A DNA stretch of 64,000 nucleotides from assembly GCA_040768745.1 (NCBI GenBank), contig JAXGMI010000002.1, forward strand, positions 96,001-160,000, written 5' to 3'. The number at the start of each line of letters is the position of its first letter. Position 1 is the stretch's first letter. The position numbers and the translations under genes are program-made. The notes under the pieces are model-generated. The model was not told the origin of the DNA. It ran no database searches and saw only the letters and a program-made list of their open reading frames with translations. The stretch is from Desulfomicrobium sp. (lineage in GTDB: Bacteria; Desulfobacterota; Desulfovibrionia; Desulfovibrionales; Desulfomicrobiaceae). This document shows, one piece after another, positions 15,225 through 30,524 of the stretch.

Positions 15225-16646
15225 ATGCAGCACTCCACATCCACACCGACATCCAGATCTGCTCACACGCGCATTCTGGCCCTGGCCAGCGGCAAGGGCG
15301 GAACGGGCAAGACCACGGTGGCCGTGAATCTGGCCCTGGCCCTGAACCGGGCGGGGCATACGGTCTGCCTCATCGACGCGGATTTCGGTCTGGCCAACGC
15401 CGAGGTCCACCTGGGTCTGCCTGCCCCGCTGAAGACCCTGGAGCATGTACTTTTCGAGGCGCTGCCATTGGAGGAGTGTCTGGTTCCGGTCCGTCCGGGA
15501 TTCGACCTCATCTCCGGCAGCAACGGCGTGGCCCGCATGGCCGAACTGGATCTGGAGGCCCGGCGGCGCCTGGTCCGGGAGTTCACGGCCCTGTCCGGCT
15601 ACGACTTTATCGTCCTGGACAATTCTCCCGGCATTTCCGCACAGGTCGTCTCCCTCTGCCTGGCCACGCGCGAAATTATCCTGATTCTCAATCCCGAGGC
15701 CGCCTCTCTTGTGGATGCCTACGCCTTGATCAAGGTCCTCAAGGAACACGGCCTGTGGTGGCCTCCCCTCGTGCTGGTCAACCGGGCCGAATCCGGGATG
15801 CAGGCCAAGCAGCTGTTCACCCGGTTCCAGGAAACTGTGCAGCAGTATCTGGGCCTCAAGCCTCTGTTCCTGGGGGTCATCCCCTTGGACAACACTGCGC
15901 GCAGGATGTCTGCGGCCGGCATGCCCTTTGTCACCCTGCGTGACGATCTCCCGGCGAGCCAGGCTGTCATGGGTGTGGCCAAGCTCCTGGTCGAGAGGCT
16001 GAACAAGGAATGGACCAGGAACGATCCGGCCGTTTTTTTCGAGAGCGTGGTTGTCCGCATGAAGCAGCGCCCGGAGTTCGGATTGACGGGCTTGCTGGGC
16101 AACCTGAGCGGGGTAGCCCCGTCCTCCTCCCAGCCCGATGTCTACATGGAACTGGTAGCCCTGATCGACAGGGCCTCAGCATTGTGCGAGAATTTGTTGG
16201 AAAATCCAGCCTACGCCTTTGTACGGGATCGCTTTGGGCTGGTGCGTCTGGCAGTGGACAATTTTCTCCACCCCTTGGACAGGCTGCGTTCGCCGCAGGG
16301 GTCAGGCAAACATCGCATTCTCGTCCTTTCCAACCATGAGCAGATGAGGACCATGCTCAAAGAAATCGTGACCGAGATGGGCTATGACGCGGAGGTCTGC
16401 ATGCCTGCCCATGGCGGCGTTGCGCAATCCCGGGGCACATGCAACCTCATGCTTGTTTCGTGTGACCGGCCGGAATCCCTGATCCGATCCACCCTGACCC
16501 AGATACCGGAACTCCCCCTTGTGTTGTTGACCGGGTTTGGCACGTCCAGTCTGGAAAGGGAATTTCGCCACCGCACGGTGGCCGTGCTGCCCAGGCCTTT
16601 CCATGTGGACGAATTGCGCACGATCCTGCAGTCGGCCCTGCGTTAG
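15225..16646 (+). CDS. MinD/FlhG-like ATPase with C-terminal degenerate receiver domain
   Basis: SGKGGTGKT, DADFGLAN, DAYALIK; C-terminal REC-like fold lacking the acidic residues. Confidence 0.85.
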   Translation: MQHSTSTPTSRSAHTRILALASGKGGTGKTTVAVNLALALNRAGHTVCLIDADFGLANAEVHLGLPAPLKTLEHVLFEALPLEECLVPVRPGFDLISGSNGVARMAELDLEARRRLVREFTALSGYDFIVLDNSPGISAQVVSLCLATREIILILNPEAASLVDAYALIKVLKEHGLWWPPLVLVNRAESGMQAKQLFTRFQETVQQYLGLKPLFLGVIPLDNTARRMSAAGMPFVTLRDDLPASQAVMGVAKLLVERLNKEWTRNDPAVFFESVVVRMKQRPEFGLTGLLGNLSGVAPSSSQPDVYMELVALIDRASALCENLLENPAYAFVRDRFGLVRLAVDNFLHPLDRLRSPQGSGKHRILVLSNHEQMRTMLKEIVTEMGYDAEVCMPAHGGVAQSRGTCNLMLVSCDRPESLIRSTLTQIPELPLVLLTGFGTSSLEREFRHRTVAVLPRPFHVDELRTILQSALR

Positions 16647-16771
16647 CCTGTATCCCTCTTTACAATCCATGTCCCCTGGCATAACCATTTTGTCCTTCAT
16701 CAATCCCTTCATCGGGGATCGCCATTTTCCTGCGGAACTGGTGTGACGTTCAGCAGCCATCGGAAAAACAT

Positions 16772-18073
16772 ATGCGCAGAGATATCGAGCACGTCGGTTG
16801 GGGAAAACTGACCTACGAAATCCGGGCCATCGTGGCGGTGGCCCAGGATCTTCGCAATCTGGGCCTGGAGATCATCTGGGAAAACATCGGCGATCCCATC
16901 GAAAAGGGCGAGCAGGTGCCGGTATGGATCAAGGAGATCATCGCCGACCTGGCCATGGATGATAAATCATACGGATACTGCGCCACGCAGGGCATCCTGG
17001 AGACCCGCGAATTTGTGGCCCAACTGGTCAATCAGCGCGGCAGCTACCAGGTCACCTCCGACGATATCATCTTTTTCAACGGCCTGGGTGACGCCGTGGC
17101 CAAGATTTTCGGCTTTCTCAAGCGCGAGGCCCGGGTCATTGGACCGTCTCCGGCCTATTCGACCCATTCTTCGGCCGAAGCGGCCCATTCCGGATACGAA
17201 CACCTGACCTATGAACTGGACCCGAACAACGGCTGGATGCCGGACCTGGTCGATCTGGAGAACAAGGTCCGCTACAACGATTCCATCGCCGGCATCCTGT
17301 TCATCAACCCGGACAACCCCACGGGTGCGGTCTATCCCTGCGAGTTGATCGAGAAGATCGTGGATATCGCCCGCCGCTACAACATTTTTGTCCTGGCCGA
17401 TGAAATATACGCCAACATCGTGTACAGCGGCCAACCGACCTGCAGTCTGTCCGAGGTCATCGGCGAGGTGCCGGGCATGGCCCTGCGCGGGATTTCCAAG
17501 GAGTACCCATGGCCTGGGGGCCGCTGCGGGTGGATCGAGGTGTATAACAAGGACAAGAATCCGGACTTCAAGGCGTACATCAAGAGTCTGCTCAACGCCA
17601 AGATGCTGGAGGTCTGCTCCACCACCTTGCCCCAGCTCTCCATTCCGCTGGTTATGGGCGACCCGCGCTACAAGGCGCACCTGGACGCCCGGCGCAGGCT
17701 GTTCGAAAAGCGCGCCCAGGAAGCATGGGAAGCCTTCCAGGGTGTGTCCGGGATTCGGGTCATCAAGCCCCAGGGCGCCTTCTACATGGCGGTCATGTTC
17801 GAGGAAGGGGTGCTGAACGCCAATCAGACTCTGGACATCCAGAACCCCCGCGTGCGGGCCCACGTGAGGGAAATCGTCAAGGGCGTGGAGGTGGACAAGC
17901 GTTTTGTCTATTATCTCCTGGGCGCCACTGGTATCTGCGTGGTTCCCCTGACCGGCTTCTGCTGTAACCGCAAGGGATTCCGGGTCACCCTTCTGGAGAT
18001 GAACGACGAAAAGCGTCGTTACACATGGAAGACCATCGGGGAAGCCATTGCCCGCTACCTCGCTTCGGCCTGA
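16772..18073 (+). CDS. PLP-dependent class I/II aminotransferase (AlaA-like)
   Basis: YEIR, NIGDP, INPDNPTG, ADEIY, GISKEYPWPGGRCGW. Confidence 0.9.
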   Translation: MRRDIEHVGWGKLTYEIRAIVAVAQDLRNLGLEIIWENIGDPIEKGEQVPVWIKEIIADLAMDDKSYGYCATQGILETREFVAQLVNQRGSYQVTSDDIIFFNGLGDAVAKIFGFLKREARVIGPSPAYSTHSSAEAAHSGYEHLTYELDPNNGWMPDLVDLENKVRYNDSIAGILFINPDNPTGAVYPCELIEKIVDIARRYNIFVLADEIYANIVYSGQPTCSLSEVIGEVPGMALRGISKEYPWPGGRCGWIEVYNKDKNPDFKAYIKSLLNAKMLEVCSTTLPQLSIPLVMGDPRYKAHLDARRRLFEKRAQEAWEAFQGVSGIRVIKPQGAFYMAVMFEEGVLNANQTLDIQNPRVRAHVREIVKGVEVDKRFVYYLLGATGICVVPLTGFCCNRKGFRVTLLEMNDEKRRYTWKTIGEAIARYLASA

Positions 18074-18077
18074 TCTC

Positions 18078-18707
18078 ATGACCGAGGGTTCCAATGTTCG
18101 TTGGCTGGACTGGGCCAGAGAAATTCAGGCCCTGGCCCAGACCGGGCTGGCCTTCACCACAAGTCAGTACGACCGTCTGACCTTTGAGCGCCTGTCCGAG
18201 ATCGCGGCCGAGATCGTGGCCGGACATTCCCAGCTTGTATTCCCGGAAATCAAGCGCGTCTTTTCCCTGGAGCCTGGGTACGCGACGCCCAAAGTGGACA
18301 TCCGGGCTGCTGTCGTCCGTGACGGACGGATTTTGCTGGTCCGGGAGAAGGCTGACGGCAAATGGGCCATGCCCGGGGGATGGGCTGACGTGGGTGACCG
18401 TCCGTCAGAAACAGCCGAACGGGAAACACAAGAGGAAAGCGGGTTTGTGGTTCGGGCGGCCAAGCTCCTGGGCGCCTTTGACGCCAATCGCGGGGAGAAG
18501 GCCAGCGTGTTCTTCCATGCCGTGAAGCTCGTGTTTCTGTGCGAACTTCTGGGCGGTGAGGCCAATCCGAGCATGGAGACCCTGGCCGTGGATTTTTTTG
18601 ATTTCGACAACCTGCCGCCCTTGTCCGAGCACCGCACCAGCCTGCGGCTTCTGGATGAGGTCCGTGCGCATCTGGCCGACCCCCTGCGACCGGCTGCCTT
18701 TGACTGA
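18078..18707 (+). CDS. NUDIX hydrolase with N-terminal domain (YjhB-like)
   Basis: QALAQTGL..YD N-terminus, GYATPKVD, Nudix box GGWADVGD...RETQEESG. Confidence 0.9.
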   Translation: MTEGSNVRWLDWAREIQALAQTGLAFTTSQYDRLTFERLSEIAAEIVAGHSQLVFPEIKRVFSLEPGYATPKVDIRAAVVRDGRILLVREKADGKWAMPGGWADVGDRPSETAERETQEESGFVVRAAKLLGAFDANRGEKASVFFHAVKLVFLCELLGGEANPSMETLAVDFFDFDNLPPLSEHRTSLRLLDEVRAHLADPLRPAAFD

Positions 18708-18708
18708 C

Positions 18709-19527
18709 ATGCACGCTGAAACCTGTTCACTGCCCATTGGTGTTTTCGACTCCGGTATCGGCGGTCTGACCGTTCTCAAGGCCCTGACCGAGGCCCTGCC
18801 CCAGGAGAGCTTCGTCTATCTGGGAGACACAGCCCGTTTGCCCTATGGGACCAAAAGCGCGCGGTCCGTGACACGCTATGCCCTGCAGACCACGGCCCTG
18901 TTGAAGGACCGGGGGGTGAAGCTGCTGGTCATCGCCTGCAACACGGCCACAGCCATGTCTCTGGATGCCCTGCACGAGGCCTATCCCGACCTGCCTGTGG
19001 TGGGCGTGATCCGTCCCGGGGCCGCAGCCGCCTGCCGGGCCAGCAAGAGCGGCCGGATCGGCGTCATCGCCACGGAAAACACTGTGAACGGACGCAGCTA
19101 CGAACGCGAAATAGTGCGCCTGCGTCCTGATGCCCAGATTTTCGCCCAGCCCTGTCCGCTTTTTGTGCCTTTGGCCGAGGAGGGATGGTGCAATGGAGAA
19201 ATCGCCGAGCTCATCGCTACCCGCTACCTCGGCTCCATGGTTGAAAACACGGGCATCGACACCCTGGTCCTGGGCTGCACCCACTTCCCGGTCCTGTCCG
19301 AAGCCATCCAGAGCGTGGTCGGGCCGGACGTGACCCTGGTTGATTCGGCCTGGACGACTGCGGAATTCGTGCGGGATATGCTTGCCCGGAGGGACATCTG
19401 TTCCACCACCGCAAGTCGGACCCTGTCCTTTCTGGCTACGGACGGGGCGGAACGCTTTGCGCGCATCGGAGGGGTGTTTCTCGATCGTCCTCTGCAGGCC
19501 CAAGACGTGGAGATCGTGGACCTCTGA
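18709..19527 (+). CDS. murI: Glutamate racemase
   Basis: IGVFDSGIGGLTV, PYGTK, IACNTA, LGCTHFP. Confidence 0.96.
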   Translation: MHAETCSLPIGVFDSGIGGLTVLKALTEALPQESFVYLGDTARLPYGTKSARSVTRYALQTTALLKDRGVKLLVIACNTATAMSLDALHEAYPDLPVVGVIRPGAAAACRASKSGRIGVIATENTVNGRSYEREIVRLRPDAQIFAQPCPLFVPLAEEGWCNGEIAELIATRYLGSMVENTGIDTLVLGCTHFPVLSEAIQSVVGPDVTLVDSAWTTAEFVRDMLARRDICSTTASRTLSFLATDGAERFARIGGVFLDRPLQAQDVEIVDL

Positions 19528-19985
19528 TGTCCGCCCTCCTGGCCGTGGATGCCGGACTGCGCACTGGACTGGCACTCTATTCCCGCCATGGGCGGTTGAT
19601 GTGGTGCCGTTCGCACAATCTGGGCACCACCACGCGATTGAAAAAAGCTGCGGCCCGGGTTCTTTTTGAGTTGCCGGAGCTGGAGTACATCGTGGTCGAA
19701 GGCGGAGGGCAGACCGCGGGGATCTGGGAGCACGCGGCTCAGAAACGCGGAGTTCCGTGTCTTGCCATTCAGGCCCAGGACTGGCGATCAGACTTCATTC
19801 TGCCCCGGCAGATGGTCAGCGGGCAGAAGGCCAAGGCGGCCGCTTGCGCCTTGGTCAACAGTATTTTGCGCAGGGAGGGGTGGTCCTCGCCGACCACGCC
19901 GGGCCATGATGCCGCCGAGGCAGCACTCATCGGCCTGTGGGCAGCAGTGCGGCTCGGATGGCGGATCATGCCCGATCTGAGGTAG
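19527..19985 (+). CDS. Hypothetical protein with RuvC/RNase H-like motifs
   Basis: LLAVDAGLRTGLA, IVVEG, W..K, HDAAEAALIG; start overlaps the murI stop. Confidence 0.7.
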   Translation: MSALLAVDAGLRTGLALYSRHGRLMWCRSHNLGTTTRLKKAAARVLFELPELEYIVVEGGGQTAGIWEHAAQKRGVPCLAIQAQDWRSDFILPRQMVSGQKAKAAACALVNSILRREGWSSPTTPGHDAAEAALIGLWAAVRLGWRIMPDLR

Positions 19986-19992
19986 GAACCAT

Positions 19993-20841
19993 ATGGATTC
20001 ACTGTGTTACGATCTTCCTGGCATGAGCCCCGTGGGTCTGGGTCTCATAGCCCTGCTGAACACCCCCGGGGCCACGGTGAAGCAGATCGCGGTCCAGGCT
20101 GAGCTCGACCCAGCCATATTCGGCAATATCGTTGGCTGTGCCAATTCCCCGGCCTATACCGGACTGAACAAATCCACCGACATCCTGGCCTCCCTGCTCC
20201 GGCTGGGGCAGCGGGAAGTCAGGCGCATCGTGTTCCAGGTCGTGCTGCGTGGGGCGTTCCATCACGAATCGCAGCCCATCAGCACCATCCTGCGCCGGAT
20301 CTGGCTGCAGAGCCTGGCGACCAACGTGTCTATGCACAAACTCACTGCCGCGGCATCAGAGTCCTTTGCCCTCGACCAGGAGGAGGCAAGGTTTGCGGAA
20401 TGTCTGGGCCTTTTGCACAACATCGGGTACTTGGTGCTGCTGGCCAATTTTCCCCATCGATTCCTTGACTTTTTTTCCCGGCACGAGGATCTGCCACTGC
20501 CAGTGTTTTTTGACCAGGAGCAAAGGTGGTTTCATCCCCATGACCATTTTTCCTGTGGCCGCGCAGTGCTCGAGGTCTGGAATTTTCCCAGATCCTTCTC
20601 GGAAATCGTGGCAGGCTATAAAGAGCCCACTGGGGAGTTCCGCGGCAGTCATCCGCGCCTGCACGGCATGTTGCGCCTGTCCAGGCACGCCATCAGCATG
20701 ACCGAGTACGCGTTCCATCCCGTTCAACCTGACGGATTCTGGGTGGAGGGGGCGGAACTGCCGGATGGGCAACCGGATTTCAGCACTCTCATCCCGGATG
20801 TGCGGCAGAGCGTCCAGCATGTGGAGGCATCGTTTTCATGA
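19993..20841 (+). CDS. Stand-alone HDOD domain protein
   Basis: LP..DPA..ANSPAY..RLG; LLHNIG; WNFP. Confidence 0.85.
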   Translation: MDSLCYDLPGMSPVGLGLIALLNTPGATVKQIAVQAELDPAIFGNIVGCANSPAYTGLNKSTDILASLLRLGQREVRRIVFQVVLRGAFHHESQPISTILRRIWLQSLATNVSMHKLTAAASESFALDQEEARFAECLGLLHNIGYLVLLANFPHRFLDFFSRHEDLPLPVFFDQEQRWFHPHDHFSCGRAVLEVWNFPRSFSEIVAGYKEPTGEFRGSHPRLHGMLRLSRHAISMTEYAFHPVQPDGFWVEGAELPDGQPDFSTLIPDVRQSVQHVEASFS

Positions 20842-21038
20842 CCTTCGAACACCGCGATTTTCGCACAAACCTCCGCTGCACCACATGCAGGGGCCTGTTG
20901 CAGGTCAGGCGGACCTGACGGTCCGTGTCGCTGCGCTGCAGGTCCTGTGGCGCGCATTTTGGACTCCAGGAATTCGGCACGACCCTCGACGACCTGATGG
21001 AGGAGTATCTGGCCAACATTCCCTGTGATCGCGTATGA
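20838..21038 (+). CDS. Small dual-CxxC selenoprotein (66 aa, Sec27), not in the ORF track
   Basis: MTFEHRDFRTNLRCTTCRGLLQVRRT-U-RSVSLRCRSCGAHFGLQEFGTTLDDLMEEYLANIPCDRV; GGAGG RBS; ATGA overlaps with both neighbours; UGA at 20916-20918. Confidence 0.88.
20933..20953 (+). promoter_or_regulatory. Bacterial SECIS element
   Basis: GCGCTGCAG-GTC-CTGTGGCGC stem-loop with a G-led apical loop 23 nt after the UGA; resembles the GCAGGUCUGC apex of the E. coli fdhF SECIS. Confidence 0.8.
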
Positions 21039-21535
21039 ATAGATCCAAACCCGTGTCCGCCAGCCGGGCGACCATCTCCTGTTCCGTGCAGCCGCAGAAT
21101 GCCAATCCAGCCGGCATTGTGCACGGCGGGTTCATCCTGCATCAGATCGATACAGTGGCCGCCGTAGCGGCCATGCGCCATGTGCGAGGGAACGTGGTCA
21201 CCCTTTCCATAGACCGGACCATTTTCCACGAGCCGGTGCATATCGGAGAACTGGTCACGTTTTTCGCCAGCGTGAACATGGTCGGCACGACGTCACTGGA
21301 GGTGGGGGTGCGGGTGGAGGCTGAAAACCTGTTCACCGGGGCCATCAGGCACACCAATTCGGCCTATCTGACCTTTGTGGCCCTTGACCGCCGTCATCGC
21401 CCCGTACCTGTTCCGGGGCTGATTCTGGAATCCGAGGAGGACCGGCGGCGCAACGAGGAAGCACTGGCCCGCCGCGCCCAACGGCTGGCCGAACGGTCAC
21501 ACTCAACACCGTCAAGGATTACATTTCGCCCATGA
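21035..21535 (+). CDS. Acyl-CoA thioesterase (hotdog fold, YciA-like)
   Basis: ANPAGIVHGG..ID, VVTLSID, GTTSLEVGV, YLTFVALD. Confidence 0.92.
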   Translation: MNRSKPVSASRATISCSVQPQNANPAGIVHGGFILHQIDTVAAVAAMRHVRGNVVTLSIDRTIFHEPVHIGELVTFFASVNMVGTTSLEVGVRVEAENLFTGAIRHTNSAYLTFVALDRRHRPVPVPGLILESEEDRRRNEEALARRAQRLAERSHSTPSRITFRP

Positions 21536-22800
21536 CTTCCGTCATTATCCCGCGTTCCGAGCATCCCGTCTCCCGCAAGCATATCCATCCTGACGCACTG
21601 AAGGTCATGTACCGCCTGGCGCGCAAAGGATTCACCGCCTATCTCGTGGGAGGAAGTGTGCGCGATCTCATCCTCGGCCGCACGCCCAAGGATTTCGACG
21701 TCAGCACCAATGCCACTCCCTCCCAGATCAAGAAAATATTCCAGAATTGCTTCCTGATCGGTCGCAGGTTCCGGCTGGCCCACATCCGTTTTGACGACCA
21801 CATCATCGAAACGGCCACCTTCCGGCGTTGCCCGGTGCAGGAAGAGGAGACCGATGACGGCGAGCTGTATATGTTGCGTGACAATTGCTACGGGACGCCG
21901 GAGGAGGACGCCCTGCGCCGGGATTTCACCATCAACGGACTCTTCTACGAGATTGAACGGTTCACCATCATCGACCATGTGGGAGGCCTGAGCGACATCC
22001 GCAATCGTCTCATCCGCAGCATCGGGGACCCGAACATCCGTTTCCGGGAGGACCCGGTGCGCATGATACGGGCGATCCGTTTTGCCGCCAGGCTCGACTT
22101 CCATATCGAGCCCGTCACCTACAACGCCATCCTGCGCCACCACGAAGAAATTATGAAGGCTTCCTCCCCGCGCATCTTCGAGGAGCTGCAGAAGCTCTTC
22201 GCCTTCGGATGCGGGGAGAAGGCGTTCCGCCTGCTGTACAAGACCGGCCTGCTGCACGACATGCTGCCGGAGGTGGCCGAATTCCTGGATCACGACCACG
22301 GTCAGGACTCCGTGCTGTGGGATTGGCTGGCGCACCTGGACGAGCGGATCCGGGACACGGGCAAGGCCGAACCGGTCCTGCTTTTTGCGGCCCTTTTATT
22401 CGCGCCGGTGCGGCGCGTGGCGGACAGGTACGCGGCCCAGGGCGAGCGGGTGGTCTTCGCCGAACTCCTGGCGGACCTCCTCACGCCCCTGTGTACGCGC
22501 ATCTGTATGCCCAAGTGGATGTCTGCCCGTTTGATCCAGATCATGGTCAACCAGACCCGGTTCGAGCCAGACAAGCGCAAGCGTTTTTCCAAGCGTGGGT
22601 TCGTGGCCCAGGACTGTTTTCCCGAGACTCTGGCCCTGTACGAACTGGGTTTGCGCGTGGCCGGCGACGACCTAAGCCACACCACAGCCTGGAAGGATCT
22701 GCGCAGAGAAGTGGAGTCTGAGCGGCCAGTATCCGACGGGTTCCGTTCCGAACATCCAAGACCGCCCCGCAAGCGGCCCTCCCGCCGGCGGCGCAGATGA
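21532..22800 (+). CDS. pcnB: Poly(A) polymerase I
   Basis: VGGSVRD..PKDFD, PAP-specific LIGRRFRLAHIRF, RRDFTIN, EDPVRMIRA; basic C-terminus. Confidence 0.93.
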   Translation: MTSVIIPRSEHPVSRKHIHPDALKVMYRLARKGFTAYLVGGSVRDLILGRTPKDFDVSTNATPSQIKKIFQNCFLIGRRFRLAHIRFDDHIIETATFRRCPVQEEETDDGELYMLRDNCYGTPEEDALRRDFTINGLFYEIERFTIIDHVGGLSDIRNRLIRSIGDPNIRFREDPVRMIRAIRFAARLDFHIEPVTYNAILRHHEEIMKASSPRIFEELQKLFAFGCGEKAFRLLYKTGLLHDMLPEVAEFLDHDHGQDSVLWDWLAHLDERIRDTGKAEPVLLFAALLFAPVRRVADRYAAQGERVVFAELLADLLTPLCTRICMPKWMSARLIQIMVNQTRFEPDKRKRFSKRGFVAQDCFPETLALYELGLRVAGDDLSHTTAWKDLRREVESERPVSDGFRSEHPRPPRKRPSRRRRR

Positions 22801-24632
22801 ATCTGCGAGAGGATCTGGTCAGTTTCCCCACCTGCCCGGGCGTCTATCTGATGAAGAACGCCGCGGGCAGAATCATTTATGTGGGGAAGGCCAAGCACCT
22901 GCGCCGCCGGGTGGCCTCCTATTTCCAGCCTGACCACCGCCTGCCGATCAAGGTCAGGGCCATGATGCCGAAGGTGCAGGGCATCGACTTCCTGTGCACG
23001 TCCACGGAAAAGGAGGCGTTGCTCCTGGAAGCGAGCCTGATCAAGAAGCACCGGCCCAAATACAACATCGTTCTGCGTGACGACAAACAGTACGTTCTCT
23101 TTTGTCTGGCCCGTAACCATCCCTTCCCGGCTTTGCGCCTGACCCGCAGGGTCATCCGCGACGGATCGGTCTATTTCGGTCCTTTCACCTCGGCCCTGGC
23201 CGCCCGGGAGACCAAGCGGGTCATCGATCGCCTCTTTCCCTTGCGTAAATGCCGGGATACGGTCTTCGCCAACCGGGTCCGGCCCTGTCTGCAATACCAC
23301 ATCGGCCGCTGTCTGGCGCCGTGCTGTCTCCCCGTATCCCAGGAGGCGTACCTGGAGGTGGTCAGGCAGGTGGAGCTTTTCCTGTCCGGCAAGTCGGCCG
23401 AGCTGGTGGCCGGCTTAGAGACCGAGATGCTGGCCGCCTCCGAGGCTCTGGACTTCGAGCGGGCAGCCCGGCTGCGGGACAGCATCCGGTCCCTGCAGGA
23501 GACCACCGAGCGCCAGGCTGCGGTCCTGTCCGACGGCCGGGATCTGGACGTCCTGGGCCTGCACAGCCATGACACAGGGATCAGTCTGGCCGTCGTTTTC
23601 GTCCGTCAGGGCCGGATCATCGACGGTCAGACCTTCTGGTTTCCGGGGGCGTCAGTGCAGACAGCCGAGGACGAACGGACCGTGATCAATGCGTTCATCC
23701 TGCAGTTCTACACCGCTGAGCGCTTCATTCCTGCGCGTCTGGTCACGGCTTTGGGCGGGGCGGATCCCGGAGTGGGCGAGATCCTGTCGGATCTGCGTGG
23801 AGGCAAAACAGTCCTGGCCAAGGCCCGGGGAGAACAGGAGCGCCGATTGGTGGACATCGCCACTGCCAACGCCCGGGCCGACGTGCGCCAGCACCGCCGG
23901 GCCGGAGCCGACGGCAAGGGGCTGGCCCGTGCCCTGGGCCTGGACAGGGAGATCGGTCGCGTGGAATGCGTGGATGTATCCCACATCCAGGGCGAAGGCA
24001 TGCGGGCAGGCCTGGTCGCGTTCACCGACGGACAGGAGGACAAGGAGGCCTACCGCATTTACGCCTTTCCCGAACTGGAGGGCAGTGCGGACGACTATCT
24101 GGCCCTGGCCCGTTTCGCAGTGCGGCGCGTCCAGTCAGGTCCGCCCTGGCCGGATTTGCTGCTCATCGACGGGGGCAGGGGGCAGCTCAGGGCCGTGGAA
24201 CGGGCCCTGAACGAGGTCGGGGCTGCTGGTCTGTTCGCTCTGGCCGCCATTGCCAAGGGCGAGAGCCGCCGGGCCGGGGAGCTGGGCGATGCGGTGTTTC
24301 TTCCTGGCCGCAAGAATCCTGCGCACCTCAAGGCCGGCAGCCCCGAGCTGCTCTTCCTGCAGCATGTGCGGGACACGGCCCACCGCTTCGCCATCTCCCG
24401 CCTGCGTCGGCACAAGCGCGGGACCCAGTTCAAATCCGAGCTGGACAGTCTGTCGGGCATCGGTCCCAAGAACGCCCGGCTGCTTTGGGAGCGGTTCGGG
24501 AGTCTGGAGGCCATGGTGGCCGCATCCGTGGATGAACTGGCCGCTTTGCCCGGGCTGGGGTTCCGGAAAGCAGTGGCCATCCACGCTGCGTTGGGGGCCC
24601 TCGGATCAGTCCCAGCCAATGCGAAGTGCTGA
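22797..24632 (+). CDS. uvrC: Excinuclease ABC subunit C
   Basis: PGVYLM..IIYVGKAK GIY-YIG domain, UVR domain, DVSH, IDGGRGQ, RD.AHRFA, HhH tail. Confidence 0.96.
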   Translation: MNLREDLVSFPTCPGVYLMKNAAGRIIYVGKAKHLRRRVASYFQPDHRLPIKVRAMMPKVQGIDFLCTSTEKEALLLEASLIKKHRPKYNIVLRDDKQYVLFCLARNHPFPALRLTRRVIRDGSVYFGPFTSALAARETKRVIDRLFPLRKCRDTVFANRVRPCLQYHIGRCLAPCCLPVSQEAYLEVVRQVELFLSGKSAELVAGLETEMLAASEALDFERAARLRDSIRSLQETTERQAAVLSDGRDLDVLGLHSHDTGISLAVVFVRQGRIIDGQTFWFPGASVQTAEDERTVINAFILQFYTAERFIPARLVTALGGADPGVGEILSDLRGGKTVLAKARGEQERRLVDIATANARADVRQHRRAGADGKGLARALGLDREIGRVECVDVSHIQGEGMRAGLVAFTDGQEDKEAYRIYAFPELEGSADDYLALARFAVRRVQSGPPWPDLLLIDGGRGQLRAVERALNEVGAAGLFALAAIAKGESRRAGELGDAVFLPGRKNPAHLKAGSPELLFLQHVRDTAHRFAISRLRRHKRGTQFKSELDSLSGIGPKNARLLWERFGSLEAMVAASVDELAALPGLGFRKAVAIHAALGALGSVPANAKC

Positions 24633-24826
24633 CCACCGGCGTGGAAGTGCCTTCCATAAAATTCATCTTTGTCTTGTATGACGAAGGGTTGCCTTGCATT
24701 CGTGGTCGCTTCGGGCTACCTCTGGTGCAGGGCAGGCAGGAGAACGTCGGATACATCCGAAGCACAATCCCTGATTCTGGAACCTTGAGCATTTCAAACA
24801 TCAATCCGGCAAGGAGTTGTAGATCC

Positions 24827-26542
24827 ATGTCCAACGCCGCACACCATTTTGCCTCCGATCCCGCGATACATCCCGATCTCGTTTCCGTGTCGCCGGAAGG
24901 CCAAGTTTTTCCCCTCCCCACGCAAGCCGACTACGACAGGGAAAACCAGCGACTGCTCCAACTGGTCGAAGCCCAGCGCGCATTGGGTCGCGAGATCGTG
25001 GTGGTCATGGGAGTGGGCTTTGTGGGCGCGGTCATGGCCGGCGTGGTGGCCGATGCCGTGCACAAGGACACGGGGGCGCCGCTCTACTGTGTCATGGGCA
25101 TGCAGCGCCCAAGCCCGCGGTCCTACTGGAAGATCCCCTACCTGAACCGGGGTCAGGCCCCGGTGGAGGCTGAGGACCCTGAGGTGGCGCCCCTCATCGC
25201 GCGATGCGTGCGGGACAAGAAGACCCTGACCGCGACCTTCTCGTACGAGGCCCTGGCGTTAGCCGATGTCGTGGTCGTGGACGTGCAGTGCGACTACCAC
25301 AAGAACGCCCTGGGCGACGTGCGCGATGGCCATGCCGAGATCAAGGCCCTGGAGGAGAGCCTTCGGGTTGTCGGGGAGAAGATTCAGCCCCATTGTCTGG
25401 TACTCATCGAAACCACTGTACCCCCGGGCACGACCGAGTATGTGGCCTATCCCATTCTGAAAAAGGCCTTTGCCCAACGCGGTCTGGTCCAGGATCAGGG
25501 GGCTGACCAGGTCTCCCGATCCGAACCGCTGCTGGCCCATTCCTACGAAAGGGTCATGCCCGGTCGCCAGTACGTGGCCTCGATCCGGGATTTCTGGCGG
25601 GTCTGCTCCGGGGTCAACGCCGAGGCCCGGGACAAGGTGGTGCGTTTCCTGGGCAATGTGCTCAATGTGGACAAATTCCCCCTGACCGTGCTGGACCGGC
25701 CCATCGAATCCGAGACGTGCAAGATCGTGGAAAACTCCTACCGGGCGACCATCCTGGCCTTTCTGGACGAATGGAGCAGGTTCGCCGAGCTCAACGGAGT
25801 GGACCTGATCAAGGTCATTGAGGCCATCAAGGTCCGGCCAACCCACGACAACATCATCTTTCCCGGGCCCGGGGTGGGCGGATACTGCCTGCCCAAGGAC
25901 GGAGGTCTTGGGGTATGGGCCTACAACACCCTGATGGGGTTTGAGGACGACATCTTCAAGATCACCCCCCTGGCCATCGACATCAACGATACGCGTTCCC
26001 TGCACGTGGCCCAGCTGGTGCGCGACGCCCTGCGCAACATGGGCAAAATCGTGGCCGCTTCGCGGGTCGCTGTGCTCGGGGCCTCGTACCGCCAGGACGT
26101 GGGGGACACCCGGTACAGCGGTTCGGAAATGATCGTGCGCAAACTGGCCGAGATGGGCGCGGAGGTCGCTGTCCATGACCCGTATGTGCGCCACTGGTGG
26201 GAGTTTGAAAAACAGGAAACCTATCCGGCCTCGGGCAAGAGCTGGGCACGGTTTTTCCGCAATCAGGACCACCTGCGTGACCTGAAGATGGCTGACACCC
26301 TGCCCCAGGCCCTGGCCGGAGTCGATGCGGTGGTCCTGGCCGTGCCCCATCAGCCCTACAAGGCCCTGACCCCCGAGGCCGTGGTGGACATGATCGGCAC
26401 CTGCGCCGCGGTGATCGACTGTTTCGGCATGCTCAGCGACGCCCAGATCGAACGCTATTTCGAGTTGGGCTGCGAGGTGAAGGGGCTGGGTCGGGGACAT
26501 ATCCAGAGGATCAAGAAAAAGGTGCAGAAAGGGGAAAATTGA
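24827..26542 (+). CDS. Nucleotide-sugar dehydrogenase
   Basis: AAGGAG RBS and ATG at 24827; GVGFVG, ETTVPPGTT, ERVMPG, GPGVGGYCLPKD. Confidence 0.9.
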   Translation: MSNAAHHFASDPAIHPDLVSVSPEGQVFPLPTQADYDRENQRLLQLVEAQRALGREIVVVMGVGFVGAVMAGVVADAVHKDTGAPLYCVMGMQRPSPRSYWKIPYLNRGQAPVEAEDPEVAPLIARCVRDKKTLTATFSYEALALADVVVVDVQCDYHKNALGDVRDGHAEIKALEESLRVVGEKIQPHCLVLIETTVPPGTTEYVAYPILKKAFAQRGLVQDQGADQVSRSEPLLAHSYERVMPGRQYVASIRDFWRVCSGVNAEARDKVVRFLGNVLNVDKFPLTVLDRPIESETCKIVENSYRATILAFLDEWSRFAELNGVDLIKVIEAIKVRPTHDNIIFPGPGVGGYCLPKDGGLGVWAYNTLMGFEDDIFKITPLAIDINDTRSLHVAQLVRDALRNMGKIVAASRVAVLGASYRQDVGDTRYSGSEMIVRKLAEMGAEVAVHDPYVRHWWEFEKQETYPASGKSWARFFRNQDHLRDLKMADTLPQALAGVDAVVLAVPHQPYKALTPEAVVDMIGTCAAVIDCFGMLSDAQIERYFELGCEVKGLGRGHIQRIKKKVQKGEN

Positions 26543-27446: not shown

Positions 27447-27590
27447 GTACTGCACTGCAAAATTCCCCTCCGACACAGACCAGGATCCCATTCACTGAAC
27501 TTTTTCCTGTATTTTGCCATTGATACGCAACGAGTTGCGTTGCTGCAGTGCTGGTTGTTGAGCGGTTCCGGACGGAGGAAGGAGTAAGTC

Positions 27591-28234
27591 ATGAGCGCCA
27601 AGAAAAAAATCTATCTGTACACGCGATTCGAGCGGTTCTGGCATTGGGTGCAGTCCCTGCTCATCTTCCTGCTCCTTTTGACCGGATTCGAGGTCCATGG
27701 CACGTTCTCTCTCTTCGGGTTCCAGAATGCAGTGGAATACCACAACTTCCTGGGCCTGACCTGGATCGTGCTCTTCATCTTCATTGTCTTCTGGGTCTTC
27801 ACCACGGGCGAGTGGCGGCAGTACATCCCGACAACCAAGAAGCTGTTCGAAGTCATTGGCTATTATTCCTCGGGCATTTTCAAGGGGCTGCCGCACCCCG
27901 TGGCAAAATCCAAAGAAGCAAAGCACAACCCCCTGCAGCGTTTGACCTATCTCGGCCTGACGGCCGTTCTGTTGACCCTGCAGATGGGCACGGGGTTTTG
28001 CTGTATTACCTGTATAACGACTGGGCCATCTGGGGCTGGACCTTTCTGAACCTGCGCCTGCTGGCAATCATCCACCTCGGCTGCGCCTTCGCCATTCTGG
28101 CCTTTGTCATCGTGCATGTGTACATGACAACCACCGGCCATACTCTGACCAGCCACATCGCGGCCATGTTCAGTGGCTGGGAAGAGGTGGAGGAGGGCGA
28201 AGTGGCGGATTGGGAAGTGCAGCAGAAGCGTTAG
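27591..28234 (+). pseudogene. Frameshifted di-haem cytochrome b (PhsC/HyaC-like)
   Basis: YTRFERFWHW..KHNPLQRLTY in one frame, LYY..IHL..HVYMTTTG in another; shift at GGGGTTTT 27992-27999. Confidence 0.85.
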
Positions 28235-28648
28235 CCGTTGCATTTTACCGCATGCAAGAAACCGCGGTTCGCACCGAAGCGGGCCGCGGGTGCGGCCATC
28301 GGCGGTCTGGCCGGGGCCGGAATCGGCCGCATGATGGACAACCAGGAAGCGGAGATGCGCCAAGCCCTGGCCCAGTCCGACGAGGTGGCCGTCCGGCGCG
28401 AGGGCGATCTTCTGGCCCTGACCCTCAAAGGGGACGTGACCTTTGCCGTGAATTCCGACGTGGTCCTGTCCGGCCTCTACAACGAGCTGGACCGCATCGC
28501 CCAGATCCTGGTCAAATATCCCCAGACCAGCATCGTGGTGGAGGGCCACACGGACAGTACCGGTTCCGATGCCTATAACCAGGGTCTGTCCGAACGCCGG
28601 GCCTGGAGCGTGCAGCGCCTCCTGGTGGACCGCGGCGTGGTTCCGGCC

Positions 28649-30524
28649 CCCAAGTTTGACAGCGGCCTGAGGCTAACACCTCGAAGTTATGACTTATATT
28701 GTTTTTTAATGCCCAATTTGTAGTACGTACAAAATAGACATAAACATTGCTATTCATGAATAATAATGCTACTCGTAGTTTATGTTTGTACGAATAGCCA
28801 AGCAGAAACGAGGCGACAAAGTCTACCGCCATCTTCAGATCGCGGAATCTTTCCGTGATCCCGAGAAAGGCGGATCTCCGCGCACACGCATCCTGGCTCA
28901 TCTCGGCACTATCGAGAGTTTGGGCGAAGACCAGGTCGAGAGACTCATCGCTGGCTTCCAGAAAGCTCTCGGTCGAGACCCGGTTCAGACTGGACCGCCG
29001 CTCCTCACGTTTGCACGTGATTTCGGACATGTTCACGCGGTCAAACATCTCTGGGAAATCCTGGGACTCTCCAAAGCCCTGGCCCGTGCAGGAGTAAAGA
29101 CCGGGGCCGGGATGGATTATGCTGAACTGATCAAGTTGCTGATCGTCAATCGACTCTGCGATCCGTGCTCCAAACTGGCGCTACTGGATTGGCTCGATGG
29201 CGTCTGGCTTTCTGGATTTGAGCAACACCGCCCGGCCTATCACCATCTCCTGCGCGCCATGGATAGATTGCTGGATGCGAAGGAAGCTTTGGAGCCCTTG
29301 ATAGCCAAGCGCTTCATGCCCAAGGCGCATTGGGAAGGCGACCTGCTCTTCTATGACATCACTTCCACATGGTTCGACGGGGATCGATCGTTGGTGGAGG
29401 ATGACATTCGGCGCTTCGGATACAGTCGCGATGGCCGGTTTGATCGGCGCCAAATCACCATCGGCGTGGTCATGGGCAAGGACGGCATACCGCTTTGCCA
29501 CCATGTCTTTCCGGGGAACACCGTGGATAAGACCACTGTGGTTGAGGTGGTGAAGGATCTGAAGACTCGCTTCAAGCTACGCAGCGTGGTGTTTGTCGGG
29601 GACAGGGGAATGCTCTCGGACCAAAATCTCGAGACGTTGCTGGCCGAGGAATTCGGCTTCATCGTGGCGCATCCATTGCGTCGTGGAGAGGAGGCGCGGA
29701 GCGTGATCGAGGCGTTGCGTCTTAAGATCTCGTTTAATGGGCAGGACGAGGAGATTGTCGAGGAAGTTCGCAGCGGGGTCCGGTTCGTTATGGCCTATTC
29801 TCCGAAGATCGCAGCCGAAACCAAGGCGAACCGCCAGGAGCGCCTTGCCAAGGCCGATGCCAAGATCCGGGAAATACTCGCCCCAAGGTCAGGCAAGGGA
29901 CGCAAACCAAGCCCACAGGGTCAATACGACCGCATCAGGGATTACCTGCGTGACAAGGGCTTGCTCTCATTGTTCCAAGTTGCGCTCACTCAGGATCAGG
30001 TCATCGTCAAGGCCCACAGGAAACGCAGGGCTTGGGAGGAAAAGATCGATGGCGTCTTGCTTCTCGAAACAACCGACATGGATGCACCATGCGCAGACAT
30101 TATCAAACATTACAAAGAGCTTGCTGAAATTGAACGGGGATGGAGAGCGCTCAAAAGCACCTTGGAACTACGCCCTGTGTATCACTGGACTGAGGAGCGA
30201 ATCAGGGCACATGTGTTTGTCTGCGTGATCGCATTGCAGTTAGAGCGCTGGATGCGCAACAAGCTCAAAGGAATGGCAGTGTCTGTGCCGACAGCCATCC
30301 GCCTTCTGCGTCAGATCAAGATGGGGGAGATCATGGTCGGAGAGGAGACGCTGATGACTCCTAGTCGCCCCACGGACGCGCAGAAAAAGATCCTGCGTGC
30401 TCTGGGAGTCCCGCCGATCCCGACCCGTGGAGAAAAAGGAAATGTAGTGTAAACTCCAACTAGCGCCGAAGCGATAATATCCTAATTTTAAACAAATAAG
30501 CTCGATATTGCTGTCAAACTTGGG
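28649..30524 (+). mobile_element. IS1634-family insertion sequence
   Basis: Perfect 15-bp terminal IRs CCCAAGTTTGACAGC (28649-28663, 30510-30524); flanks CGGCC / CGGCA. Confidence 0.92.
28782..30452 (+). CDS. IS1634-family DDE transposase
   Basis: YDITSTWFDG, GYSRD, VGDRGM, IERGWR.LK..L.LRPVYHW.EERIRAHVFVC. Confidence 0.92.
   Translation: MFVRIAKQKRGDKVYRHLQIAESFRDPEKGGSPRTRILAHLGTIESLGEDQVERLIAGFQKALGRDPVQTGPPLLTFARDFGHVHAVKHLWEILGLSKALARAGVKTGAGMDYAELIKLLIVNRLCDPCSKLALLDWLDGVWLSGFEQHRPAYHHLLRAMDRLLDAKEALEPLIAKRFMPKAHWEGDLLFYDITSTWFDGDRSLVEDDIRRFGYSRDGRFDRRQITIGVVMGKDGIPLCHHVFPGNTVDKTTVVEVVKDLKTRFKLRSVVFVGDRGMLSDQNLETLLAEEFGFIVAHPLRRGEEARSVIEALRLKISFNGQDEEIVEEVRSGVRFVMAYSPKIAAETKANRQERLAKADAKIREILAPRSGKGRKPSPQGQYDRIRDYLRDKGLLSLFQVALTQDQVIVKAHRKRRAWEEKIDGVLLLETTDMDAPCADIIKHYKELAEIERGWRALKSTLELRPVYHWTEERIRAHVFVCVIALQLERWMRNKLKGMAVSVPTAIRLLRQIKMGEIMVGEETLMTPSRPTDAQKKILRALGVPPIPTRGEKGNVV

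Follow-up and report, generated by a model that had tools for sequence, protein, structure and literature searches.

A predicted selenoprotein of the dual-CxxC small protein family in Desulfomicrobium sp. and its possible tie to dissimilatory sulfur metabolism

The window analyzed here is a 64,000-nucleotide stretch of a Desulfomicrobium sp. genome. It contains, on the forward strand, the genes for an HDOD-domain protein (PF08668; positions 19993 to 20841), a hotdog acyl-CoA thioesterase (PF03061; 21035 to 21535), and the poly(A) polymerase PcnB (TIGR01942, above cut-off; 21532 to 22800), followed at 22797 to 24632 by what we take to be uvrC. The gap between the first two is filled by a 66-codon frame on the same strand (20838 to 21038), assigned from the sequence and a profile match to the dual-CxxC small selenoproteins (NF041197, RxU or OS_HP3 type). 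A Shine-Dalgarno-like GGAGG (20823 to 20827) lies 10 nt 5' of its ATG, and the frame shares an ATGA overlap with each neighbor, the HDOD gene on its 5' side (20838 to 20841) and the thioesterase gene on its 3' side (21035 to 21038). The single internal TGA is codon 27 (20916 to 20918), located between the motifs CTTC (residues 14 to 17) and CRSC (residues 34 to 37), and the protein ends in PCDRV. A preliminary description of this DNA had proposed such a hidden frame, with its ribosome-binding site, overlaps, lone UGA, and C-terminal motif, and all of these were found again in the sequence.

Two other ORFs cover the gap, one of 87 aa on the forward strand and one of 150 aa on the reverse strand. 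In a comparison of 21 loci, the frame of the 66-codon gene carries no other stop in any locus, whereas the five other frames are stopped in 2 to 15 of the 21, and for this reason both ORFs were rejected as real genes. Contigs from two public runs (one RNA library and one that is probably DNA) span the TGA with zero differences, which argues against an assembly error at this position and does not imply expression. One contig of the RNA library spans positions 20894 to 21050; contigs of this kind are no proof of transcription, and the library may contain DNA. A promoter scan of positions 16500 to 25000 returned no sigma-70-like site.

The encoded protein matches the NCBIfam model NF041197 (CxxC_Se_CxxC, "dual CXXC motif small (seleno)protein") over all of its positions (1 to 53 of 53) with 77.6 bits against a cut-off of 40, and still scores 68.6 bits when the TGA is treated as a stop and read through. 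The suspicion that the family might already have a name was thus correct. Public homologues bear the NF041197 name. Close relatives with a named source are records from Desulfomicrobium and Desulfonatronum. The family was first reported in 2007 as OS_HP3, with a predicted SECIS element (PMC1976440), and Table 1 of a 2026 review equates NF041197 with OS_HP3, gives its motif as RxU, and classifies it as "predicted with high confidence" and not as verified (PMC13188914). The same review files under NF041197 the "hypothetical protein DW," which has the motif GxU (PMC12013277).

Genes of this family are truncated by ordinary gene callers, and several database entries of 35 to 37 aa start directly past the Sec position. 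Among 105 pattern-matched database proteins, all derived from ordinary gene calling, position 27 holds Cys 95 times, Trp 7 times, and some other residue 3 times. The Trp forms (P0040, P0057, P0063, P0069, P0089, P0130, and P0144), most of which have the Sec-type CRSC motif, are probably due to gene callers translating a UGA as Trp.

The proposal that this UGA is recoded finds support in the rest of the genome. Profile searches detect selA (628 bits), selB (366 bits), and selD (324 bits), all above cut-off, and tRNA-Sec is present on contig C3, so that the Sec machinery on which the proposal depended is in place. The selD gene of this genome has an in-frame TGA and a hairpin of its own.

Homologues behave as expected of a selenoprotein family. 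In the order to which this genome belongs, NF041197 matches 59 of 61 genomes, 55 of them above cut-off; among the latter, 47 contain a single TGA within the matched stretch, and the other 8 lack one. The codon at position 27 in 30 extracted loci (L006 to L035) is TGA in 23 and TGC or TGT in 7, that is, UGA or Cys in every case, as the preliminary description had anticipated, and selA is kept in all 7 genomes with the Cys form. A tree built from 52 columns, with rough supports, places the Cys forms in several separate clades inside the RxU type, indicating that Cys arose there more than once. This exchange of Sec and Cys points to position 27 as a reactive residue. Past the UGA, differences from 20 Sec-form relatives fall mostly on third codon positions (144, 94, and 331 at positions 1, 2, and 3, respectively), and the frame is otherwise open in the 21 loci, which bears out the predicted conservation downstream of the UGA.

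The SECIS element predicted in the preliminary description was found again at the same place. Its upper stem-loop (20933 to 20953, forward strand) consists of 9 bp (20933 to 20941 paired with 20945 to 20953) and a 3-nt loop that starts with GU at 20942; the codons of the second CxxC motif (C34 to C37; 20937 to 20948) also serve as stem and loop. The loop lies 23 nt past the UGA, and the longer fold occupies 20920 to 20965. As regards loop, stem, and spacing, the published bSECIS criteria call for a loop of 3 to 9 nt, a stem of 4 to 16 bp, a G in the first two loop positions, and a spacing of 16 to 37 nt from the UGA (PMC13188914). Here, the loop has 3 nt, the stem 9 bp, the G comes first, and the spacing is 23 nt. 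The z-score of the hairpin is -2.46 in a 33-nt segment and -3.33 in 47 nt but only -1.54 in 60 nt and -0.73 in 85 nt. As a chance control, 559 terminal TGA stops of long ORFs from the same genome were folded; 18 of them fold as strongly and 57 pass a loose SECIS filter, which makes the hairpin by itself evidence of modest weight. The motif TGY-RRGT at +21 occurs at none of the 559. An Rfam scan of positions 20700 to 21200 gave 0 matches at E values up to 10, which is uninformative, because many bacterial SECIS elements do not resemble one another (PMC13188914).

Comparison of the two forms is more telling. The motif RRG[TG] is found at +24 in 36 of 42 Sec rows, which include one misfiled paralogue and related, hence not independent, sequences, versus 2 of 28 Cys rows. 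The mean folding energy is -12.4 kcal/mol in Sec rows and -8.3 kcal/mol in Cys rows at similar GC content. Arginine at the loop codon is AGG in 19 of 22 cases versus 10.6% of Arg codons genome-wide (Desulfomicrobium genome). Judged by these sequence patterns, the SECIS loop is under selection at the RNA level.

These data bear on the reading that the UGA is simply a true stop, the lesion of a pseudogene, or a sequencing error. The passing of the loose filter by 57 of 559 ordinary stops, the Rfam result, and the listing of the family as predicted rather than verified would agree with it. Against it stand the single in-frame TGA in 47 of 55 above-cut-off matches of the order, the third-position variation past the UGA, the loop motif specific to Sec forms, the complete Sec machinery, and the identical contigs of the public runs, which together leave it extremely improbable. 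It is the comparative sequence evidence, and not the hairpin, that decides the recoding question. SECIS-directed insertion of Sec at the UGA of a real gene is almost certainly what these sequences encode, and the genomic data thereby uphold the central claim of the preliminary description, that of a hidden selenoprotein gene.

Gene neighborhoods are conserved only locally. The HDOD gene lies upstream in 19 of 21 loci of the genus and is not seen there in other lineages. The thioesterase gene is directly downstream in 4 of 21 genus loci. The most stable neighbor within the order is pcnB, found downstream in all 21 genus loci and in 5 others among L006 to L055, with no such linkage seen outside part of the order. 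For RxU genes at large, no recurrent neighbor was found: 48 loci, drawn from other lineages and from paralogues, are flanked by 94 ORFs, which proved to be lineage specific, and guilt by association was rejected as a guide to RxU function.

An alternative is a selenium-sensing leader, in which read-through at the UGA would govern how the next, overlapping gene is translated, the peptide itself being incidental. The ATGA overlaps at both gene ends fit this arrangement and are present here as first described. However, the thioesterase overlap is a local feature and not a trait of the family, being found in only 2 of 21 genus loci, one of which has the Cys form. Neighbors and orientation vary, and conservation of the protein sequence extends across the phylum, Cys forms included. 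Such a leader is, on these grounds, very unlikely.

Several other features of the region were observed. A 152-aa ORF at 19527 to 19985, which has no Pfam or NCBIfam match, follows murI throughout the genus. In genome G028 (L012, positions 1012 to 1662), its homologue continues in frame into the small gene, which is there of the Cys form and retains a ribosome-binding site of its own; the 216-aa protein P0014 represents a similar fusion. Further downstream, a 556-aa ORF labeled by its sequence as transposase-like (28782 to 30452, forward strand) adjoins an apparently interrupted OmpA-like lipoprotein ORF (28238 to 28723). A cytochrome b-like membrane ORF (27591 to 28234, forward strand) seems to be split over two frames, 27591 to 28049 and 27548 to 28234, possibly by a frameshift or a sequencing error.

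An AlphaFold2 model built with 94 sequences (pLDDT 74, pTM 0.54) has strands at residues 8 to 13, 20 to 25, 30 to 34, and 40 to 42 and a helix at residues 52 to 59. Fold searches gave no significant match, the wide one having used only an earlier, weaker model. The leading matches, all below significance, are zinc-ribbon proteins (topoisomerase I, Z = 5.0; Elf1, Z = 3.8). The model topology fits a zinc ribbon, in which two CxxC knuckles on a sheet of 3 to 4 strands would bind one Zn, and the zinc-ribbon-like fold suggested in the preliminary description is thus a prediction. The first CxxC pair (C14 and C17; 20877 to 20888) forms, by alignment and model, the predicted first metal knuckle. Judging from topology and not from coordinates, both CxxC pairs would lie at one end of the molecule and residue 27 (20916 to 20918), within its R-x-U motif, at the opposite turn, between strands 20 to 25 and 30 to 34.

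In an alignment of 94 rows, compiled without fragments, long proteins, or Trp forms, the four cysteines are nearly invariant (C14 in 94, C17 in 93, and C34 and C37 in 94 rows). Arg25 is found in 87 rows, Asp51 in 82, and Glu55 in 85. Alignment and model delimit a predicted acidic amphipathic helix with a free [DN]R-hydrophobic C terminus at D51 to V66 (20988 to 21035, forward strand). The tail reads [DN]R[ILVMF] in 82 of 94 rows and [IM]YD in 7. Within the PCDRV columns, Cys63 is found in only 40 rows, versus D or N in 93 and R in 87; the C-terminal motif is thus present as first noted, but its conserved part is the free C terminus and not its Cys. For the same reason, a Sec27-Cys63 redox pair was rejected as the mechanism of the family. 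The [IM]YD end replaces the [DN]R-hydrophobic end in a Cys-only subtype (L083 to L089 and L093; P0093 to P0095 and P0159), which follows a phosphoribosyltransferase gene at all 8 loci and has one named member, from Desulfobulbus oralis. The longer proteins among the best 150 of 268 profile matches comprise N-terminal extensions, a single fusion with the ORF upstream, a 195-aa protein of unclear kind, and repeat proteins with several ribbons, in which the ribbon alone is aligned.

As to function, the preliminary description had suggested a redox or metal sensor with an exposed Sec. Such a ribbon could belong to a metal carrier or sensor, its CxxC pairs holding Fe, as in rubredoxin, or Zn, and its exposed Sec binding or handing on a soft metal, in the way HypA does for Ni. 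The four-Cys site suits this role, a weak HypA sequence match (E = 3e-4) points in the same direction, and in one genus, two loci of the Sec form have a Fur-family gene and a gene for a solute-binding protein next to them. The HypA likeness is, however, confined to residues 31 to 64 and far under the cut-off, and the 94 flanking ORFs of the 48 loci contain no recurrent genes for metal transport or resistance, leaving this role unlikely. HypA identity as such was rejected, as model NF003008 gives 14.4 bits against a cut-off of 125 over residues 29 to 62 only.

Another role in which Sec would matter is that of a redox-switched regulator that would bind nucleic acid, ribosomes, or RNA polymerase and use Sec for the switching, in a ribbon like those of Elf1, RPB9, or topoisomerase. 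The best fold matches are to such ribbons, the N-terminal half of the protein is basic, and the gene is near-universal in the order, with pcnB as its stable neighbor there. But zinc ribbons have many roles, every fold match falls short of significance, and the pcnB linkage was found in part of the order only; this, too, is an unlikely reading.

Phyletic distribution offers a different lead. In this order of sulfate reducers, nearly all genomes have the family. In a wider survey of 251 genomes of the phylum, NF041197 matches 64, dsrA is found in 131, and selA in 232. Separate profiles for the RxU and GxU types, applied to about 24 to 26 candidates per genome and hence liable to miss some, detect RxU in 44 and GxU in 34 of the 251 genomes after 1 and 3 cross-matches, respectively, had been dropped, and all of these genomes are dsrA positive. 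One type or both occur in 62 of 131 dsrA-positive genomes versus 0 of 120 dsrA-negative ones, of which 108 encode selA. Both types are found in 16 of the 251 genomes, including the Desulfomicrobium genome studied here. Two NF041197 matches do fall in dsrA-negative genomes; with E values of about 1e-4 they rank with the weakest, and the two type-specific profiles did not recover them. Since 69 of the 131 dsrA-positive genomes have neither type, these proteins are not a core Dsr factor. Ancestry alone may explain the pattern, because most of the dsrA-negative genomes make up entire lineages of their own.

Judged by coordinates, none of the 44 RxU genes is close to dsrA. In 5 of 34 genomes, which belong to four families, the GxU gene and dsrA are no more than about 6 kb apart, and in two of these the GxU gene lies about 200 bp upstream of dsrA. 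These five loci, picked by coordinates (L106 to L110; genomes G088, G270, G294, G155, and G125), contain dsrABD, a TPR gene, a DVU0298-family gene, and two small Cys-rich ORFs, and the cluster also includes dsrMKJOP in at least three of them. Given the shared arrangement, they may go back to one ancestral event.

The Desulfomicrobium genome has a second hidden gene, of the GxU type, on contig C3 at about 242672 to 242900 on the forward strand (L124, 6673 to 6900). It has a TGA at 242735 and a SECIS-like hairpin of its own, lies directly 3' of a Tim44-like gene, and was missed by the NF041197 search of the genome. This second copy, the co-occurrence with dsrA, and the position of GxU genes in the dsr cluster are added by the present analysis.

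In the preferred explanation, SelB would bind the in-frame hairpin and Sec would be inserted at the UGA, giving a 66-aa selenoprotein. The four invariant cysteines would hold one structural metal, probably Zn, in the predicted zinc ribbon. Sec27 would sit at the hairpin turn, away from the metal site and beside the conserved Arg25, as a single exposed reactive selenol aided by this arginine and lacking a conserved resolving Cys. The acidic helix and the free [DN]R-hydrophobic terminus might form a tail that docks on a partner protein. As a relay for thiol redox or for sulfane sulfur, the selenoprotein would serve or regulate another protein that acts in dissimilatory sulfur metabolism. A small relay adaptor of this kind, tied to dissimilatory sulfur metabolism, is favored here tentatively and at somewhat less than even probability. 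The narrower proposal that RxU and GxU, possibly as a pair, are selenium-bearing accessory factors on the DsrAB, DsrC, DsrD, and DsrMKJOP machinery, small zinc-ribbon carriers whose single selenol would recycle or pass sulfane sulfur or reset oxidized thiols, is somewhat unlikely. The remaining probability is assigned to roles not thought of.

For specialists, the gene itself is a routine call, and the interest lies in the role of the dual-CxxC family, in which a costly Sec residue is retained by near-universal proteins in an order of sulfate reducers. Literature searches, at the level of listings, found no published function or dsr link for the family. No function is assigned to it in the available portions of PMC13188914, PMC1976440, and PMC12013277. 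A term search of PMC13326102 gave no match, and those of PMC9312934 and two bioRxiv preprints turned up nothing on its function. The co-occurrence with dsrA, the position of GxU in the dsr cluster, and the conserved C-terminal tail together make up the first testable lead. If it is true, selenium would take part directly in the control or servicing of sulfite respiration.

Among known proteins, the zinc ribbons YfgJ (PF07191), HypA, Elf1, RPB9/RPA12, topoisomerase I, and LysW share with the predicted fold the two CxxC knuckles on a small β-sheet, with every score below cut-off or significance. The GxU subfamily, which, by its motif alone, is probably the "hypothetical protein DW," is much closer, having the same CxxC-U-CxxC spacing and SECIS position and a profile-profile probability of 98% (E = 2e-13). 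It differs in forming a separate clade (support 100/100, from 52 columns with rough supports), in having Gly rather than Arg two residues before Sec, and in lacking the [DN]R-hydrophobic end. Assignment of the 66-aa protein to GxU was rejected, as it has Arg25 and falls in the RxU clade. With NF041197/OS_HP3 it shares its small size, the C14-C17 and C34-C37 pairs, and R25-T26-U27 with a single Sec in the RxU motif; nothing was found that sets this copy apart, and the gene is a member of that already catalogued family.
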